DNA of 17,108 nucleotides, taken from the IMG/VR virus record IMGVR_UViG_2869976549_000007, one strand, 5' to 3'. The notes below the pieces were generated by a model that worked only from the letters and a program-made list of their open reading frames with translations, ran no database searches and was not told the origin of the DNA. Position 1 is the stretch's first letter; the number at the start of each line of letters is the position of its first letter. This stretch comes from a virus (lineage: Duplodnaviria > Heunggongvirae > Uroviricota > Caudoviricetes). The translations under genes were made by a program, and so were the position numbers. This document shows, one piece after another, positions 1,582 to 17,069 of this stretch.

Positions 1582-1643
1582 AAAAAGAACAAATGGTAGT
1601 GTCCGCTATTGCCAGTACACCTCAAGGATAAGGCTAAAAAATC

Positions 1644-3140
1644 ATGACGATAAGTTTTAATACTGTTCCGTCGAATACGCTGGTGCCGTTGTTCTACGCC
1701 GAGATGAACAATTCTGCGGCAAATACAGCGGTGACCAGCGCGCCTGCATTACTGATCGGGCATGCCAGCAACGATGCAGCCATTGAGGTTAACAGCCTGG
1801 TGCTGATGCCATCGGCAGATTATGCCCGCCAGATTTGTGGGGCGGGGAGCCAGCTGGCGCGTATGGTGGAAGTCTACCGTCAGACAGATCCTTTCGGTGA
1901 ACTGTATGTTATTGCAGTACCGGAAGCCAGAGGGGCGGCGGCGACGGTCAGGGTGACGGTTGCCGGAGAAGCAGAGGAAAGCGGCACCCTGAGTCTGTAT
2001 GTCGGGCGCTCCCGTGTACAGGTGCCTGTGGTGAATGGCGATGATGCCACTGCGGTTGCCACCGCGATTAAGGAAGCGGTAAACGGGGTTATCACCCTGC
2101 CGTTTACGGCGTCATCTGATGCAGGTGTGGTGACGCTGACTGCCCGTCATAAGGGGCTGTATGGTAATGAGTTACCGGTCTGTCTGAATTATTATGGTTC
2201 TGGTGGTGGTGAGATTCTGCCAGCAGGGCTTCGGGTGGTGACGGAAGTCGGTGCTGCCGGTAGCGGAGCGCCTGATCTTACCGCCGCTGTTGCTGCTATG
2301 GGCGATGAGGCATTCGACTTTATCGGTCTGCCGTTCAACGATGCCGCCTCCATCAATATGATGATGACCGAAATGAATGACAGCAGCGGTCGCTGGAGTT
2401 ATGCGCGCCAGTTATACGGGCATGGCTATACCGCAAAACTGGGAACGCTGTCAGAGCTGGTTGGTGCCGGAGATATGCATAATCAGCAACATATCACGCT
2501 TGCCGGTTACGAAAAAGAAACCCAGTCGCCTGTCGATGAACTGGTTGCCAGTCGCCTTGCCCGTGAAGCGGTATTTATCCGGAATGATCCTGCCCGTCCG
2601 ACACAGACGGGGGAGCTGGTGGGGATGCTTCCGGCACCGAAAGGTAAGCGATTCATCATGACAGAGCAGCAGACCCTTTTATCTCACGGCGTGGCGACGG
2701 CTTATGTGGAAGGCGGCACGTTGCAGATCCAGCGTTCCGTAACCACCTACAAAAAGAATGCGTATGGCGTGGCAGACAACAGCTATCTGGACAGTGAAAC
2801 TCTGCATACCAGTGCATATGTTCTTCGCAAACTGAAATCGGTCATCACAAGCAAGTACGGACGTCACAAGCTGGCAAATGATGGTACCCGTTTTGGTCCG
2901 GGGCAGGCGATTGTCACTCCTGCCGTTATCAAAGGGGAACTTCTGGCGACATATCGTCAGATGGAGCGTGCCGGTATTGTGGAAAATTACGATCTGTTTA
3001 AACAGTATCTGATAGTTGAGCGTGATGCAGATAACCCGAACCGACTGAATACGCTGTTCCCGCCGGATTATGTTAATCAGTTACGTGTCTTTGCGGTGGT
3101 TAACCAGTTCCGTCTTCAGTATTCAGAGGAGTCAGCATAA
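1644..3140 (+). CDS. Contractile tail sheath protein (Mu gpL-like)
   Basis: 498 aa. The N-terminus MTISFNTVPSN…VPLFYAEM resembles Mu-type sheath proteins. The size fits, and its stop overlaps the next start (ATAATGG). Confidence 0.85.
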   Translation: MTISFNTVPSNTLVPLFYAEMNNSAANTAVTSAPALLIGHASNDAAIEVNSLVLMPSADYARQICGAGSQLARMVEVYRQTDPFGELYVIAVPEARGAAATVRVTVAGEAEESGTLSLYVGRSRVQVPVVNGDDATAVATAIKEAVNGVITLPFTASSDAGVVTLTARHKGLYGNELPVCLNYYGSGGGEILPAGLRVVTEVGAAGSGAPDLTAAVAAMGDEAFDFIGLPFNDAASINMMMTEMNDSSGRWSYARQLYGHGYTAKLGTLSELVGAGDMHNQQHITLAGYEKETQSPVDELVASRLAREAVFIRNDPARPTQTGELVGMLPAPKGKRFIMTEQQTLLSHGVATAYVEGGTLQIQRSVTTYKKNAYGVADNSYLDSETLHTSAYVLRKLKSVITSKYGRHKLANDGTRFGPGQAIVTPAVIKGELLATYRQMERAGIVENYDLFKQYLIVERDADNPNRLNTLFPPDYVNQLRVFAVVNQFRLQYSEESA

Positions 3141-3496
3141 TGGCAAAGATCGCCGGAACCTGTTTTTTTAAAGTGGATGGTCAGCAGTTATCGCTGACAG
3201 GTGGCATTGAAGTGCCGATGAACACCAATGTCCGGGATGACATCGTCGGCATGGCAGGGGATGTGGATTACAAGGAGACCTGGCGGTCACCTTACGTTAA
3301 GGGCACGTTTAAAGTGCCCAAAAACTTTCCGGTCGACAAAATTACCACCTCAGACCAGATGACGATTACCGCTGAGCTGGCAAACGGCATGGTGTATGTG
3401 CTTTCGGCGGCATGGCTGCACGGAGAGGCTAATCATAATGCCGAAGAAGGCACGGCAGATCTTGAATTCCACGGCGAAGAGGGAGGGTATCAGTAA
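3140..3496 (+). CDS. Tail tube protein (Mu gpM-like)
   Basis: 118-aa ORF immediately after the sheath gene, translationally coupled to it. Position and size fit a Mu-type tube protein. Confidence 0.65.
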   Translation: MAKIAGTCFFKVDGQQLSLTGGIEVPMNTNVRDDIVGMAGDVDYKETWRSPYVKGTFKVPKNFPVDKITTSDQMTITAELANGMVYVLSAAWLHGEANHNAEEGTADLEFHGEEGGYQ

Positions 3497-3831
3497 TGGC
3501 AATGAACGTTACAGAAATAGTTTTAAAAAAACCGGTGACAGCGCATAACGAAATGCTGCATGTGCTGGAGTTGCGCGAGCCCACGTATGACGAAATCGAG
3601 GCGCTGGGTTTTCCTTTCATTATTTCCGGTGAAGGCAGTATTAAACTGGACAGCCAGGTGGCACTGAAATATATCCCGTTGCTGGCGGGGATCCCGCGTT
3701 CATCGGCGGCGCAGATGGCAAAACTGGATATTTTTAAGACCAGCATGCAGATCCTGCGTTTTTTTACCCAGTCGGAGACGGGAAGCACCTCCGGAAACGA
3801 CTCTACAATGTTGCCTGGTTCTGGAAACTGA
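3496..3831 (+). CDS. Tail assembly chaperone (Mu gp41-like)
   Basis: 111-aa ORF between the tube and tape-measure genes, containing a T_TTT_TTT slippery heptamer near its 3' end. Confidence 0.6.
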   Translation: MAMNVTEIVLKKPVTAHNEMLHVLELREPTYDEIEALGFPFIISGEGSIKLDSQVALKYIPLLAGIPRSSAAQMAKLDIFKTSMQILRFFTQSETGSTSGNDSTMLPGSGN

Positions 3832-3923
3832 ATCCACTGGAGCTGCGACGGGGGGCTGTTTCGCAGTTTACAGAACTGGAAGCCGAGGCCGTCCGCATTA
3901 ACGAGGAGATGAAGCATGGCTGA
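3759..3923 (+). other. Programmed -1 frameshift site (T_TTT_TTT, 3759..3765) and -1 frame extension of the tail assembly chaperone
   Basis: The heptamer lies in the zero frame (cgT TTT TTT acc). The -1 frame is open for 52 codons (YPVGDGKHLRKRLYNVAWFWKLNPLELRRGAVSQFTELEAEAVRINEEMKHG) and stops at 3921..3923, just past the tape-measure ATG at 3916. Confidence 0.5.
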
Positions 3924-5865
3924 CAGTTTTCAGCTGAAGGCGATCATCACTGCCGTGGATAAGGTATCGGCACCGCTGAAGGGAATGCAGCGCCAGCTGA
4001 AAGGTTTTAAAAAGGAGTTTGCCAGCCTGTTACTGGGCGCAGCGGGTGCCGGAACCGCAGTACTGGGGGCGCTGGCGCTCCCGGTCAAATCTGCCATTGC
4101 CCTTGAATCAAAAATGGCGGATGTCCGGAAAGTGGTGGATGGTCTGGATACGCCGGAAGCGTTTAAGGCAATGACGGAGCAGGTGCGCGACCTGTCAACA
4201 GAACTGCCCATGTCGGCGGAAGGTATCGCCGAAATTGTGGCGGCGGGTGGTCAGGCTGGTATCGCCCGTGACGAGCTGATGCAGTTTACTGACGATGCCG
4301 TGAAGATGGGCGTGGCCTTTGACACCACGGCAGAAGAATCCGGTCAGATGATGGCGCAGTGGCGCACTGCCTTTAAACTGACACAGGGAGAGGTGGCAGG
4401 GCTTGCGGATAAGATTAACTATCTTGGTAATACCGGTCCTGCAAGTGCGAAAAAGATTTCTGATGTTGTGACCCGTATTGGCCCTTTAGGCAGTGTTGCG
4501 GGTGTGGCCTCCGGAGAGATTGCCGCAATGGGGGCAACCATTGCCGGAATGGGGGTGGAGTCAGAAATTGCTGCGACGGGGATAAAGAATTTTATGTTGT
4601 CGCTGACAGCGAGGGATTCTGCCACCAAATCGCAGAAAAAAGTGCTCCGCTCGTTGCGCATTAGCCCGAAAAAACTGGCGGCGGATATGCAGAAAGACGC
4701 CCGCGGGGCCATGCTGCACGTACTGGATTCTCTGGCAAAAGTGCCGAAAGAAAAACAGGCTGCTGTGCTGAAAGCGCTGTTCGGGAAGGAATCCCTGGGG
4801 GCCATTGCGCCGCTGCTCACGAATCTGGATTTGTTGCGAACCAACTTTAATCGTGTGGCGGATGCGCAGCAGTATGGCGGCTCAATGCAGAAAGAATATG
4901 CCGCCCGTGCCGCGACGACAGAAAATCAGTTGTTGCTGCTGCAGAACCAGATCAATGCGATTTCTTCCACGCTGGGGGAAACCTTCCTGCCTTCACTCAA
5001 TGAAGGCATAAAAGAGATGAAGCCTTTTCTGGAAGAAGTGCGCACGTTTGTCAGAGAAAATCCTGAGGTCGTAAAAACCATCGCGAAAACTGGTGCGGCA
5101 TTACTGACGATGGGCGTGGCGATTGGCACATTGACACGCATAACAAAAATCATGGGTAGCGTGATGAATATGACGCCGGCAAAGGGATTAATTGCGCTTC
5201 TCGTCGGTGGTGCATATCTCATAATTGATAACTGGGAAACGGTCGGTCCGGTTGTGAAAAAAGTCTGGCAGGAGGTTGATCAGGTTGTCAGAGCAATGGG
5301 GGGATGGGAACAGGCAGTAAAAACAATAGCAACGGTTTCTGCCCTGTATATTGGTGTGAAGGCGGTGGCAAGTATTCGTGCGGCAACAGTCGCCCAGAAT
5401 CAATGGACAACGGCGGCAGGAAAAACAGGGCTGAAATTAAAGGGCCTCGGAAAGATCAGTCTGATTGGTGGATTGCTTGAACTGGGCATGATGGCGCAGG
5501 AGTTTGAAAAAGCACATCCCTGGCTTGTTAAAAATTTTGTGGCTGATGCACTGAACAGTGGATTTGGTCTGAATGATAAGTTCGACGAGTGGGGCAAACA
5601 GTTCCATGATTTTGTCTATGACATGACCGGATGGCAGATGCCACGTGGTGATGGGTATTTATCTCCCGATAAACGCTACACCCCGAATGTATCACTGGAA
5701 AGGAATCAGCTGTTAAGCCTTGCATCTTCACCGGCAACCCGCAGCGAACTTAAGGTGACGTTTGACAACGCGCCGCCTGGAATGCGCGTTATCGATTTGC
5801 CGAAAACAGGCGATCCCTTTATGAAAATCACCCATGATGTTGGGTATTCTCCATTTAAAAGGTGA
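3916..5865 (+). CDS. Tail tape measure protein (Mu gp42-like)
   Basis: 649 aa, directly downstream of the chaperone frameshift window. Ala/Gly-rich N-terminus and an internal hydrophobic segment (…GAALLTMGVAIGTL…GLIALLVGGAYLII…) are typical of tape-measure proteins. Confidence 0.8.
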   Translation: MADSFQLKAIITAVDKVSAPLKGMQRQLKGFKKEFASLLLGAAGAGTAVLGALALPVKSAIALESKMADVRKVVDGLDTPEAFKAMTEQVRDLSTELPMSAEGIAEIVAAGGQAGIARDELMQFTDDAVKMGVAFDTTAEESGQMMAQWRTAFKLTQGEVAGLADKINYLGNTGPASAKKISDVVTRIGPLGSVAGVASGEIAAMGATIAGMGVESEIAATGIKNFMLSLTARDSATKSQKKVLRSLRISPKKLAADMQKDARGAMLHVLDSLAKVPKEKQAAVLKALFGKESLGAIAPLLTNLDLLRTNFNRVADAQQYGGSMQKEYAARAATTENQLLLLQNQINAISSTLGETFLPSLNEGIKEMKPFLEEVRTFVRENPEVVKTIAKTGAALLTMGVAIGTLTRITKIMGSVMNMTPAKGLIALLVGGAYLIIDNWETVGPVVKKVWQEVDQVVRAMGGWEQAVKTIATVSALYIGVKAVASIRAATVAQNQWTTAAGKTGLKLKGLGKISLIGGLLELGMMAQEFEKAHPWLVKNFVADALNSGFGLNDKFDEWGKQFHDFVYDMTGWQMPRGDGYLSPDKRYTPNVSLERNQLLSLASSPATRSELKVTFDNAPPGMRVIDLPKTGDPFMKITHDVGYSPFKR

Positions 5866-5999
5866 GTTCTTTTTTTGTGGTGAAAGATGAGGCAAAATTA
5901 TCGCGTAACATGCTAACAATGGAGTTTGTTTTGTGATAAAGCCATTTTTAATGACGGTTGCAATATTAACCTCTTGCTGTGCTCAGGCGAAAATACTAA

Positions 6000-7195
<1,196 letters not shown>

Positions 7196-10214: not shown

Positions 10215-10625
10215 ATGATGATTAATGTTAACGGGCGACCCGTGTCGACCGGGGCTTCGATCGACCTTCTGACGCGTGCTGTGATTATTTCGCTTTTTAC
10301 ATGGCGGCGTGCCGGGCGTGATGATGCACCACGGATATTTGGATGGTGGGGGGATACCTGGCCTGCGGTTCAGAATGATCGCACGGGGTCGCGTTTGTAT
10401 CTGTTGCGACGCAGCAAGCTGACAAATAAAACCCCGCAGCTTGCCAGAGATTATGTCCGTGAGGCGCTGGCGTGGATGGTGGAGGATGGTGTTGCTTCCC
10501 GTCTTGATATTAACGCTGTCCGGACCGGGACAGACTCGCTGGCACTTGCCATTACCATTTACCAGCGTGACGGCAATATTCACAACATTATTTTTGATGA
10601 TATCTGGAGTGAACTGAATGGCTGA
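10215..10625 (+). CDS. Baseplate protein, Mu gp46-like
   Basis: 136-aa ORF between the spike and the baseplate J-like gene; overlaps the downstream start. Confidence 0.6.
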   Translation: MMINVNGRPVSTGASIDLLTRAVIISLFTWRRAGRDDAPRIFGWWGDTWPAVQNDRTGSRLYLLRRSKLTNKTPQLARDYVREALAWMVEDGVASRLDINAVRTGTDSLALAITIYQRDGNIHNIIFDDIWSELNG

Positions 10626-11226
10626 CAGTCAGTTTTATCGCCCCGGCCTCCCGCAACTTATTTCTATGATCCGGAGCGATTTATTAACCCGCTTTGAGCA
10701 GGATACGCTGCTTCGTCGTATGGATGCGGAAGTGTATGCCCGTGTACAGGCTGCAGCCGTACACACGTTGTACGGGTATATCGATTATCTTGCCAGAAAT
10801 CTGTTACCGGACGTGTGTGATGAAGACTGGCTGTACCGGCACGCCAGAATCAAACGCTGCCCGCGAAAAGAAGCGGTGGCAGCCCGGGGATTTGTGCGCT
10901 GGGATGGCGTAGAGGGGACGCCGGTATTGCCAGCGGGAACGCAGATCCAGCGTGATAATCAGGTGACCTTTACCACGACGGCGACGGTGACCGCAGCCGA
11001 TGGTCTTCTCCGGGTGCCTGTTGTGGCAGACGAACCGGGATCGGCGGGGAATACGGATGATGGTATTGCCATGCAACTGGGAACACCCGTCAGTGGTCTG
11101 CCGTCCACAGGGTACGCTGACACCATTACAGACGGTGAAGATATTGAAAATCTGGAAATATGGCGTGCCCGCGTTATGGAACGTTATTACTACATTCCAC
11201 AGGGGGGCGCAGGTAATGACTCCAAC

Positions 11227-11730
11227 TTATTGATAGTGTTTTATGTTCAGATAATGCCCGATGACTTTGTCATGCAGCTCCACCGATTTTGAGAACGACA
11301 GCGACTTCCGTCCCAGCCGTGCCAGGTGCTGCCTCAGATTCAGGTTATGCCGCTCAATTCGCTGCGTATATCGCTTGCTGATTACGTGCAGCTTTCCCTT
11401 CAGGCGGGATTCATACAGCGGCCAGCCATCCGTCATCCATATCACCACGTCAAAGGGTGACAGCAGGCTCATAAGACGCCCCAGCGTCGCCATAGTGCGT
11501 TCACCGAATACGTGCGCAACAACCGTCTTCCGGAGACTGTCATACGCGTAAAACAGCCAGCGCTGGCGCGATTTAGCCCCGACATAGCCCCACTGTTCGT
11601 CCATTTCCGCGCAGACGATGACGTCACTGCCCGGCTGTATGCGCGAGGTTACCGACTGCGGCCTGAGTTTTTTAAGTGACGTAAAATCGTGTTGAGGCCA
11701 ACGCCCATAATGCGTGCAGTTGCCCGGCAT
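11227..11730 (-). CDS. insB: IS1 InsB (expressed as InsAB' by frameshift)
   Basis: 167-aa minus-strand ORF overlapping insA. The A6C slippery motif (minus-strand TTAAAAAAC) lies near 11671..11681. Confidence 0.9.
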
Positions 11731-11924
11731 CCAACGCCATTCATGGCCATATCAATGATTTTCTGGTGCGTACCGGGTTGAGAAGCGGTGTAAGTGAACT
11801 GCAGTTGCCATGTTTTACGGCAGTGAGAGCAGAGATAGCGCTGATGTCCGGCAGTGCTTTTGCCGTTACGCACCACCCCGTCAGTAGCTGAACAGGAGGG
11901 ACAGCTGATAGAAACAGAAGCCAC
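11649..11924 (-). CDS. insA: IS1 InsA
   Basis: 91 aa, [43 protein letters not shown]…, matching IS1 InsA. Confidence 0.95.
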
Positions 11925-12476
11925 TGGAGCACCTCAAAAACACCATTATACACTAAATCAGTAAGTTGGCAGCATCACCGGGGGCGCAGACCCTGATTAT
12001 GTTATCTGGGCGAAAGAAGTTCAGGGTATTAACCGTGCATGGACTTTCAGACACTGGAAAGGCACTGGAACGGTTGGCGTGATGGTGGCGACAAACGATC
12101 CGGAACGCCCGGCCCCGGATGAAAGCGTGATTAACGCAGTCAGGGACCACATCCTTCCTCTGGCACCTGTTGCCGGAAGCGGATTGTATGTATTCGGTGC
12201 CACAGAAAAAGTCATCCCGATGACGATTGCATTATCGAAAGACACACCGCAGATCAGGACTGCAATAAAAGCAGAGCTGAATGCACTGATGTTACGGGAT
12301 GGTGTGCCAGAGGGGCGTATGTATCTGTCCAGAATCAGTGAGGCCATCAGTTTGTCTGCTGGTGAAGTGGCCCACCGGTTAATCGTCCCTTCATCGGATA
12401 TTGACCTGGGGGAGACCGAGCTTCCGGTGCTCGGCGAGATCACCTGGCAGGCTTATGACCCGGCAAGGAGTAAATA

Positions 12477-16706: not shown

Positions 16707-17069
16707 TGGTGGAGCTGGCGGGAGTTGAACCCGCGTCCGAAATTCCTACATCCTCGGTACTACATGCTTAGTCAGTCTTTACATTCGCTTGCCAGCTGCG
16801 GACGGACACGCCACTAACAAACTAGCCTGATTAAGTTTTAACGCTTCAACCCCAGGCAGGGCTTCCACGCGATCTCTTTTGGGTTTGACCTCTCTTGATC
16901 CCCGTCCTAAGAGCGGAGGCTAGGGAGAGAGGGCTCTAAGCAGGTTATTAAGCTGCTAAAGCGTAGTTTTCGTCGTTTGCGACTATTTTTTGCGGCTTTT
17001 TACGAGGCCAACCGCCCCTCGGCATGCACCTTGGGTTTCGCAAATCCCGTCGAATCCAGAATCAGCCCC
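16707..17069 (-). ncRNA. ssrA: tmRNA (transfer-messenger RNA)
   Basis: The reverse complement reads GGGGCTGATTCTGGATTCGACGGGATTTGCGAAACCCAAGGTGCATGCCGAGGGG…GCAAACGACGAAAACTACGCTTTAGCAGCTTAATAA…GGGTTCAACTCCCGCCAGCTCCACCA. This is an enterobacterial ssrA with the ANDENYALAA tag-coding region and 3' CCA. Confidence 0.95.

Follow-up and report, generated by a model that had tools for sequence, protein, structure and literature searches.

The IMG/VR virus record IMGVR_UViG_2869976549_000007, whose 17,108 nucleotides (nt) constitute the window analysed in this work, holds a prophage that resembles phiP27 and ST64B and has a contractile, Mu-like tail, and the tail assembly chaperone gene of this prophage contains a run of seven T's (T7). 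We consider it very probable (about 0.85) that this run is a recoding signal for a programmed -1 ribosomal frameshift of the P2 E/E+E' type (lambda G/GT type), by which the 111 amino acid (aa) chaperone would be extended into a fusion of 142 aa. Although unannotated, the site is ordinary, its mechanism being long familiar from phages lambda and P2; as this mechanism and the fact that it is conserved date back in the literature to 1993–2004, no concept is changed. It is of value chiefly for annotation: none of the inspected records of the clade lists a 142-aa tail-assembly protein.

The T run, read directly from the sequence, occupies positions 3759–3765 on the + strand, and in the zero frame of the chaperone gene (3496..3831, + strand) it is read as CGT TTT TTT ACC, which makes it an in-phase X_XXY_YYZ heptamer, T_TTT_TTT. 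An earlier reading made from the letters of the window (the sequence-only reading) had placed this heptamer in the zero frame of a 111-aa chaperone-like open reading frame (ORF), had described a -1 frame that stays open for 52 codons and ends 5 nt after the tape-measure ATG, and had ascribed the absence of this extension from the ORF track to the want of a start codon; all three statements are confirmed by our analyses. The zero-frame product (G/E-like) has a mass of ~12.1 kDa and an isoelectric point (pI) of 5.3, and the zero frame runs 21 codons beyond the slip site, forming an acidic tail that is rich in Ser and Thr. The -1 frame extension (T/E'-like; 3765..3923, + strand) is basic (pI 9.3), is predicted to be helical and has no start of its own. 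After a -1 slip its first codon would be TAC at 3765, and its 52 sense codons (3765–3920; YPVGDGKHLRKRLYNVAWFWKLNPLELRRGAVSQFTELEAEAVRINEEMKHG) are followed by a TGA at 3921–3923, which ends 5 nt past the ATG of the tape measure gene (3916–3918), so that the two genes overlap by 8 nt (ATGGCTGA). Upstream, the -1 frame is closed by a stop at 3735–3737 and is open only from 3738; no ATG, GTG or TTG occurs in it from this stop until codon 48 of the extension, for which reason the extension is missing from ORF lists. The predicted trans-frame fusion (3496..3923, + strand, join(3496..3765, 3765..3923)) would have a mass of ~16.2 kDa, and its translation contains the predicted junction peptide FFYPVGDGK as well as the extension peptides LYNVAWFWK and GAVSQFTELEAEAVR.

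The assignment of the gene to the tail assembly chaperones, which the sequence-only reading had also made, is supported by both family and position. The ORF matches the Pfam family PF10109 (Phage_TAC_7; E=6.3e-7, 29.8 bits, gathering cut-off 25), which is titled 'Phage tail assembly chaperone proteins, E, or 41 or 14' and includes P2 gpE, and it also matches phrog_166 'tail protein' (E=5e-28). In near-identical prophages of Escherichia coli the Prokaryotic Genome Annotation Pipeline (PGAP) names the product 'phage tail assembly protein'. The gene is flanked by the tail tube and tape measure genes, as in systems of the lambda G/GT type. An AlphaFold2 (AF2) model of the 142-aa fusion has a mean predicted local distance difference test (pLDDT) score of 74.5; residues ~11–90 are modelled confidently as a beta-hairpin plus helices, and the extension is modelled weakly, as two helices. 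Among the viral models of BFVD, this model is matched best by tail assembly chaperones, one of them a 'tape measure chaperone' (E=6e-5), and the fusion has no sequence match in the PDB, where a Foldseek search returned only noise (E>0.1). The extension alone gave just four partial matches in a database of 5.8 billion proteins, and its low AF2 confidence is due to these four matches, which allowed no deeper alignment.

A baseline for chance was taken from the + strand genes of the window, in which the -1 frame is open for at least 50 codons at 6.7% of codon positions (median 10 codons). These genes contain 24 in-phase heptamers, two of which lie near the 3' end of a gene and lead into a long -1 ORF, viz. 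the T7 of the chaperone gene and the orfA/orfB site of an IS3-family insertion sequence (IS) element at 676. The heptamer and long -1 frame of this one sequence are by themselves suggestive, and it is the conservation across relatives described below that places the site far beyond chance.

Two further in-phase heptamers, T_TTA_AAA at 3522 and A_AAA_AAA at 3525 (together 3522–3531), are present near the 5' end of the chaperone gene. The -1 frame shuts 5–6 codons past them, and a slip there would therefore only abort translation; they occur in phiP27-type sequences and not in remoter relatives.

Conservation of the slippery heptamer and of the extension

Three samples of relatives were examined, viz. 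19 loci from contigs representing one genome per species, with chaperone domains 56–99% identical to that of the window and from at least eight enterobacterial genera (Shigella, Escherichia, Mixta, Pantoea, Buttiauxella, Erwinia, Mangrovibacter and Leclercia); 80 loci returned from IMG/VR; and individual phage records, P2 included. An in-phase TTTTTTT-AC is found in 19/19 of the genome loci, each of which has a -1 ORF of 51–54 codons. T7 is likewise in phase in all 80 of the IMG/VR loci and is followed by an extension of 52–57 codons in 79 of them, the sole exception being a mutationally fused form. Among the individual phages, phiP27, ST64B and YeP2 carry T7 in phase, SfV, EPP-1 and AH07 carry T_TTT_TTC with a 53-codon extension, and P2 carries T_TTT_TTG with a 57-codon extension, for which the P2 record annotates an E+E' join with a '-1 translational frameshift'. 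Throughout the T7 group both Phe codons are TTT and never TTC, and the codon that precedes them encodes Arg, Asn, Gly or Ser (CGT, AAT, GGT or AGT) and always ends in T, such that neither the Phe codons nor the wobble T before them vary. The extension ends 8–11 nt inside the tape measure gene in all of the relatives examined. The sequence-only reading had named a T run that varies among relatives and a -1 frame that is not conserved as findings that would speak against the frameshift, and neither is observed: T7 is invariant, with T6C and T6G found only in remoter relatives, and the length, end point and amino acid sequence of the -1 frame are all retained. As UUUUUUU is under-represented in E. 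coli genes (PMC4066793), this invariance of T7 argues for selection.

The pattern of substitutions in the extension is that of a conserved protein-coding sequence. In codons 24–50 of the extension, which lie beyond the zero-frame stop, the mean pairwise nucleotide variability at codon positions 1/2/3 of the -1 frame is 0.26/0.17/0.54 (Wilcoxon test, position 3 > 2, p=3e-5; position 3 > 1, p=9e-5). Nine residues of the extension are invariant across 21 sequences, and synonymous codon variation occurs at 9/9 of them, including switches between the TCN and AGC codons of Ser and the CGN and AGG codons of Arg. In the T7 group the extension is 57–77% identical to that of the window and the chaperone domain at the same loci 57–73%, the one identity following the other. 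These patterns indicate that the extension evolves as a protein under purifying selection. It matches phrog_32181 (E=8e-5) and phrog_11318, which are small-protein PHROG families.

Within the 21-codon overlap the periodicity also follows the -1 frame (0.32/0.20/0.40). The zero-frame tail is only 43–57% identical to that of the window, which is below the identity of the extension, and it is shortened in Leclercia and YeP2 (8 residues) and in the SfV group (3 residues). The zero-frame stop T(G/A)A (3829–3831 in the window; alignment columns 101–103) is embedded in the -1-frame codons for Leu/Ile-Asn (cTG AAt or aTA AAt), which form part of a conserved WK(L/I)NP motif. Because of this embedding, the constant length of the zero-frame tail in most relatives would probably be a by-product of the conservation of the -1 frame.

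Fused and aberrant forms of the gene were also encountered. In some prophages of Shigella flexneri (L056, IMG/VR, VA-6 type) a G has been inserted ~30 nt after the heptamer, changing CCGGAAAC into CCGGGAAAC (equivalent to 3791–3792 in the window); this 1-nt insertion joins the zero frame to the extension frame and yields a single ORF of 142 aa (P0001–P0005), one form of which (P0003) is seen on 661 contigs. The S. flexneri form is a natural 'GT-only' allele and not the ancestral form. Other database proteins of ~120–158 aa (P0007, P0008, P0013, P0016 and P0027) mix all three frames downstream of the T run, e.g., RFLPSRRREAPPETTLQCC...WFWKLNPLELRR, and these chimeras most likely result from homopolymer indel errors in assemblies. 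We considered the ~140-aa database proteins as natural single-ORF versions of the gene and rejected this, since alignment and DNA show them to be indel derivatives or multi-frame chimeras; T7 sites thus generate spurious fused proteins in large protein collections. In the high-GC (guanine plus cytosine) Paraburkholderia phage IPK (L025, ~1762–1990), a homologous extension is present in the -1 frame (hidden Markov model (HMM) E=1e-11), the Phe-Phe pair is encoded by TTC TTC and the two frames overlap by only ~4 codons. A search of the sequence around this overlap revealed no X_XXY_YYZ heptamer, and phage IPK either uses a different shift site or has errors in its unverified record.

Mode of recoding and alternative explanations

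In the proposed mechanism, most of the ribosomes would stay in frame through CGT TTT TTT ACC and finish at 3831, producing the 111-aa chaperone. A minority would slip back by one base with tRNA-Phe in both the P site (UUU, 3760–3762) and the A site (UUU, 3763–3765), and as both tRNAs would re-pair perfectly with UUU in the -1 frame, the slipped ribosomes would read 52 more codons and stop at 3923, producing the 142-aa fusion. If the products act like those of lambda G/GT, the tape measure protein would be bound by both of them through their common N-terminal domain, the tube protein would be recruited by the rarer extended product, and the virion would contain neither. In the lambda model the common domain likewise makes the contact with the tape measure and the extension that with the tube protein, with a critical ratio between the products (PMC5009743). 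Heptamers of the form H_HH.U_UU.Y are among the efficient -1 motifs in E. coli, where U_UU.U_UU.U and U_UU.U_UU.C shift at >0.1% in the absence of a stimulator (Sharma et al., 2014; PMC4066793). The ribosomal nature of the slippage, its efficiency and the chaperone roles of the two products are inferred.

A number of results weigh against this interpretation. The shift and both of its products are predicted here from sequence. The sequence-only reading had suggested that a downstream stimulatory structure be looked for, and no conserved one was found: the 100 nt downstream of the heptamer (3766–3865) fold no better than shuffled sequences (z=0.06), and RNAalifold applied to 16 sequences returned only an unsupported 4-bp element and nothing relevant. 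A recurrent GUCG...CGAC helix, beginning 2–4 nt past the heptamer, was tried as a candidate and rejected, being 77% paired with 0 compensatory changes and not above shuffles. The extension has no match in Pfam (E<=10) or NCBIfam, and it is not detectably like P2 E': it does not match PF06528 (Phage_P2_GpE) at E<=10, hhalign assigns the pair a probability of 3.5%, and an HMM comparison gives E=0.6 in a tiny database. Its function as a T domain therefore rests on position and analogy. The present-day function of the site in this particular genome is doubtful. Lastly, RNA polymerase slippage would produce the identical protein (RFFYPV...), and U7 could support some of it.

Other signals around the site were also sought. 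In relatives, 12 folds of 45 nt have z-scores of -1.0 to +0.5, no conserved purine-rich motif resembling a Shine-Dalgarno (SD) sequence is evident upstream of the heptamer in the alignment of relatives, and no Rfam family is found around the site even at E<=1. For P2 and its relatives no hairpin has been reported, and the P2 shift works without one (PMC3091744).

Transcriptional slippage is the only serious mechanistic rival of the ribosomal frameshift. According to this explanation, RNA polymerase adds a U at T7/A7, and the resulting U8 mRNAs carry the two frames as one, such that no ribosome needs to slip. Homopolymers of A or T do induce slippage of RNA polymerase, which is a possible cause of the rarity of UUUUUUU in all three frames of E. 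coli genes (PMC4066793), and a conserved run length with a preceding wobble T is predicted by it equally well. However, efficient slippage in bacteria is tied to runs of ~9, sometimes 8 (PMC1088944), and the length required for programmed transcriptional slippage (A/T ~8–9 or more) is reached neither here, where the run is 7, nor in the SfV group and P2, where it is 6. SfV, EPP-1 and AH07 (T6C) and P2 (T6G) nevertheless have the same two-frame layout, all of the site variants are valid in-phase X_XXY_YYZ heptamers, and for the P2 site the frameshift is described as translational (P2 record; PMC3091744). Low-level transcriptional slippage may take place at T7, but as the main source of the fusion it appears improbable. 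Somewhat less improbable, though still unlikely, is dual-mode recoding at U7, in which RNA polymerase slippage would contribute materially beside the ribosomal -1 shift; the same limited credence is given, separately, to the 21-codon zero-frame tail being a functional dual-coding segment. Were such a picture true, the PF10109 chaperones of Mu-like tails would possess at least three recoding solutions (T7 -1, T6C -1 and Mu -2), and their extensions would be too diverged to be recognised as one family.

The remaining explanations dispense with programmed recoding of a fusion altogether. An ancestral gene for a single 142-aa protein could have been split by an indel in the T run, leaving the extension as a decaying pseudogene segment; T runs are prone to indels, the prophage of the window is degraded, and protein databases contain ~140-aa single-ORF 'fused' versions (P0001–P0013). 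Against this stand the split layout with exactly T7 in every one of ~100 loci from many genera and viable phages, the rarity of the fused forms, each of which arises from a different indel, and the purifying selection on the extension, which is unlike that of a pseudogene, and we regard such a mutation as very improbable. Equally slight is the chance that the extension is translated separately as a small protein, from an internal start or by coupling, rather than as part of a fusion: its matches to phrog_32181 and phrog_11318 imply that some annotators call a separate ORF elsewhere, but in the window the -1 frame lacks a start codon between its upstream stop and codon 48, several relatives have no start at all, no start is conserved in position, and the conserved peptide begins right at the heptamer. 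That the T run merely encodes a conserved Phe-Phe pair and the -1 frame is open by chance, with no recoding, would accord with the invariance of Phe-Phe at the protein level, which would retain most of the T's, and with the 6.7% of window positions at which the -1 frame is open this far by chance. Coincidence does not account for the fact that neither Phe codon is ever TTC in the T7 group, that the upstream wobble T is kept across four amino acids, or that the -1 frame displays coding periodicity, synonymous substitution and an end fixed relative to the tape measure start in all relatives; from these comparisons this explanation appears effectively refuted.

Comparison with known systems and annotation status

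The sequence-only reading had likened the site to the widely conserved lambda G/GT-type arrangement. The arrangement and its conservation are upheld by our analyses, but the closest known system is P2 gpE/gpE+E' rather than lambda G/GT. The window shares with P2 an N-terminal PF10109 domain (29.8 bits in the window, 47.8 in P2 E+E' and 56.7 in SfV), a gene located between the tail tube and the tape measure of a contractile tail, an in-phase T_TTT_TTN heptamer following a Gly/x-Phe motif, a fusion of 142 aa (P2 length from PMC3091744), an 8-nt overlap with the tape measure gene (P2 E+E' ends at 19857 and T starts at 19850; NC_001895) and the lack of a downstream hairpin (for P2, PMC3091744). 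The two sites differ in the last base of the heptamer, which is T in the window and G in P2, with position and phase alike, the window having a variant of the P2 signal and not the identical one; because of this difference, the A-site tRNA is that for Phe, with perfect re-pairing, in the window and that for Leu in P2. The zero frame continues for 21 codons past the slip site in the window and for 6 in P2, and the rest of the tail module of the window is Mu-like and not P2-like. A reconstructed P2 E+E' matches PF06528 at 1.2e-21, and as the extension of the window has neither a PF06528 match nor significant similarity to E', it cannot be assigned to the E' family. A homologous relation of the extension to P2 E' or the Mu -2 extension was sought, with no significant result; around an aromatic-x-P-x-E-L motif the alignments do run co-linearly. 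NCBIfam has no match for the chaperone or extension parts, nor for P2 E+E'.

Lambda differs from the window in being a siphovirus, with the heptamer G_GGA_AAG, whereas the tail of the window is contractile and Mu-like. Both have a chaperone gene just upstream of the tape measure gene and a -1 shift near its 3' end leading to a minor extended product, with the same proposed division of labour (PMC5009743). The chaperone and extension parts match no Pfam chaperone family besides PF10109, in a comparison that did not contain the lambda sequence itself. P2-like phages shift with an efficiency 2- to 3-fold above that of lambda (PMC5009743).

The sequence-only reading had proposed a comparison of the extension with those of Mu-like phages, for which Mu has turned out to be a poor comparator. 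The tail module is homologous to that of Mu (viz. sheath, tube, DNA-circularisation protein and gp44, gp45, gp46 and gp48-like baseplate proteins), and Mu gp41 scores 24.7 bits against PF10109, just below the cut-off of 25. However, gp41 has 144 aa and matches PF23746 (Gp41_Mu) at 9e-35, whereas the protein of the window has no PF23746 match, and Mu has no in-phase X_XXY_YYZ heptamer and a candidate extension in the +1/-2 frame, whereas the shift in the window is -1. The literature states that Mu uses -2 frameshifting (PMC5009743, there citing Xu et al., 2004; Baranov et al., 2006), with which an extension in the +1/-2 frame that lacks a heptamer is consistent. The T_TTT_TTN series (T, C, G) on homologous chaperones could be used to relate the identity of the heptamer to the G:GT ratio.

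The lambda gpG/gpGT -1 frameshift was reportedly described by Levin, Hendrix and Casjens in 1993 and by Xu, Hendrix and Duda in 2004, 2013 and 2014. The programmed -1 frameshift of P2 gpE/gpE+E' is said to have been described by Christie and colleagues in 2002, and the conserved tail-chaperone frameshift is said to have been surveyed across long-tailed dsDNA phages by Xu and colleagues in 2004. No joined coding sequence is annotated in the records of phiP27, ST64B, SfV, YeP2, AH07, EPP-1 or one near-identical RefSeq prophage of E. coli, which list just a short product, named 'tail protein' or 'phage tail assembly protein', and among the matches listed, 30 of the 51 matching E. coli genomes (29 besides that of the RefSeq prophage) have a short 'phage tail assembly protein' product only. 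The locus of a frameshift mutation known from ST64B is presumably a different tail gene. That mutation is reported as a 'tail assembly gene frameshift mutation', at a locus given by locus tags only (PMC7067206). No description of the site was found in the literature searched on phiP27, ST64B, SfV and SfIV in combination with frameshifting. That search did not extend to Christie et al. (2002) or to Xu et al. (2004), in either of which the phiP27/ST64B clade may already be listed. As the clade includes Stx2e-converting and serotype-converting phages and tailocin relatives, correct annotation matters for judging the tail-making ability of prophages.

Genomic neighbourhood and state of the prophage

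The chaperone gene forms part of a contractile, Mu-like tail module on the + strand. Directly upstream of it lies the tail tube gene (3140..3496; PF10618 Tail_tube, E=1.4e-33), preceded by the tail sheath gene (1644..3140; PF04984, PF17482 and PF17481), and downstream lies the tape measure protein gene (3916..5865; 649 aa; PF10145, E=1.4e-44), the first 8 nt of which overlap the end of the extension. Further downstream are Mu-type genes for a DNA-circularisation protein and for gp44/P-, gp45-, gp46-, J- and gp48-like baseplate proteins. The region is 96.5% identical to that of the Stx2e phage phiP27, and 51 of 5,426 complete E. coli genomes have prophages that are 94.5–99.8% identical to it. 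From the sheath to the tape measure (1625–5999) the window is 99.8% identical to loci in S. flexneri SFBU1023 and E. coli ECMA0423.

This prophage is a defective remnant, in which the head and neck genes have been replaced by an IS element and two further IS elements have been inserted. The first is the IS3-family element (363–1624; HTH_Tnp_1 plus rve; orfA 425–727, orfB 763–1581), which replaces the ~3.5 kb that encode capsid to tail terminator in the FDAARGOS_944 prophage (L002, 2413–5921) and has a classical -1 site of its own, an in-phase A_AAA_AAA followed by G (676–683; heptamer 676–682) that leads into a 299-codon -1 ORF (orfB). The second is an IS5-like element (~6000–7195; transposase 6068–7048; ISKpn26-family by RefSeq naming), which separates the tape-measure stop (5865) from the DNA-circularisation gene (true start ~7210) and of which thousands of E. 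coli records contain copies with ~99% identity. The third is an IS1 (~11213–11979; transposase 11227–11730, - strand) that interrupts the baseplate J-like gene, the ORF of which (10618–11292) has only 224 aa and covers positions 2–137 of the 255-position Baseplate_J profile. As the prophage is defective, the signal, although intact, is probably unused for virion production here, and this copy is probably a relic in that respect.

In SFBU1023 and ECMA0423 the similarity to the window also breaks at 5999, and ~0.5 kb further on there is an IS1-like sequence that is 90.8% identical to the IS1 of the window. A complete transfer-messenger RNA (tmRNA) gene, ssrA, is present at 16707–17069 on the - strand (Rfam RF00023, 295.8 bits), and its orientation, with the 3' end towards the tail-fibre side of the prophage, suggests integration of the prophage at ssrA.

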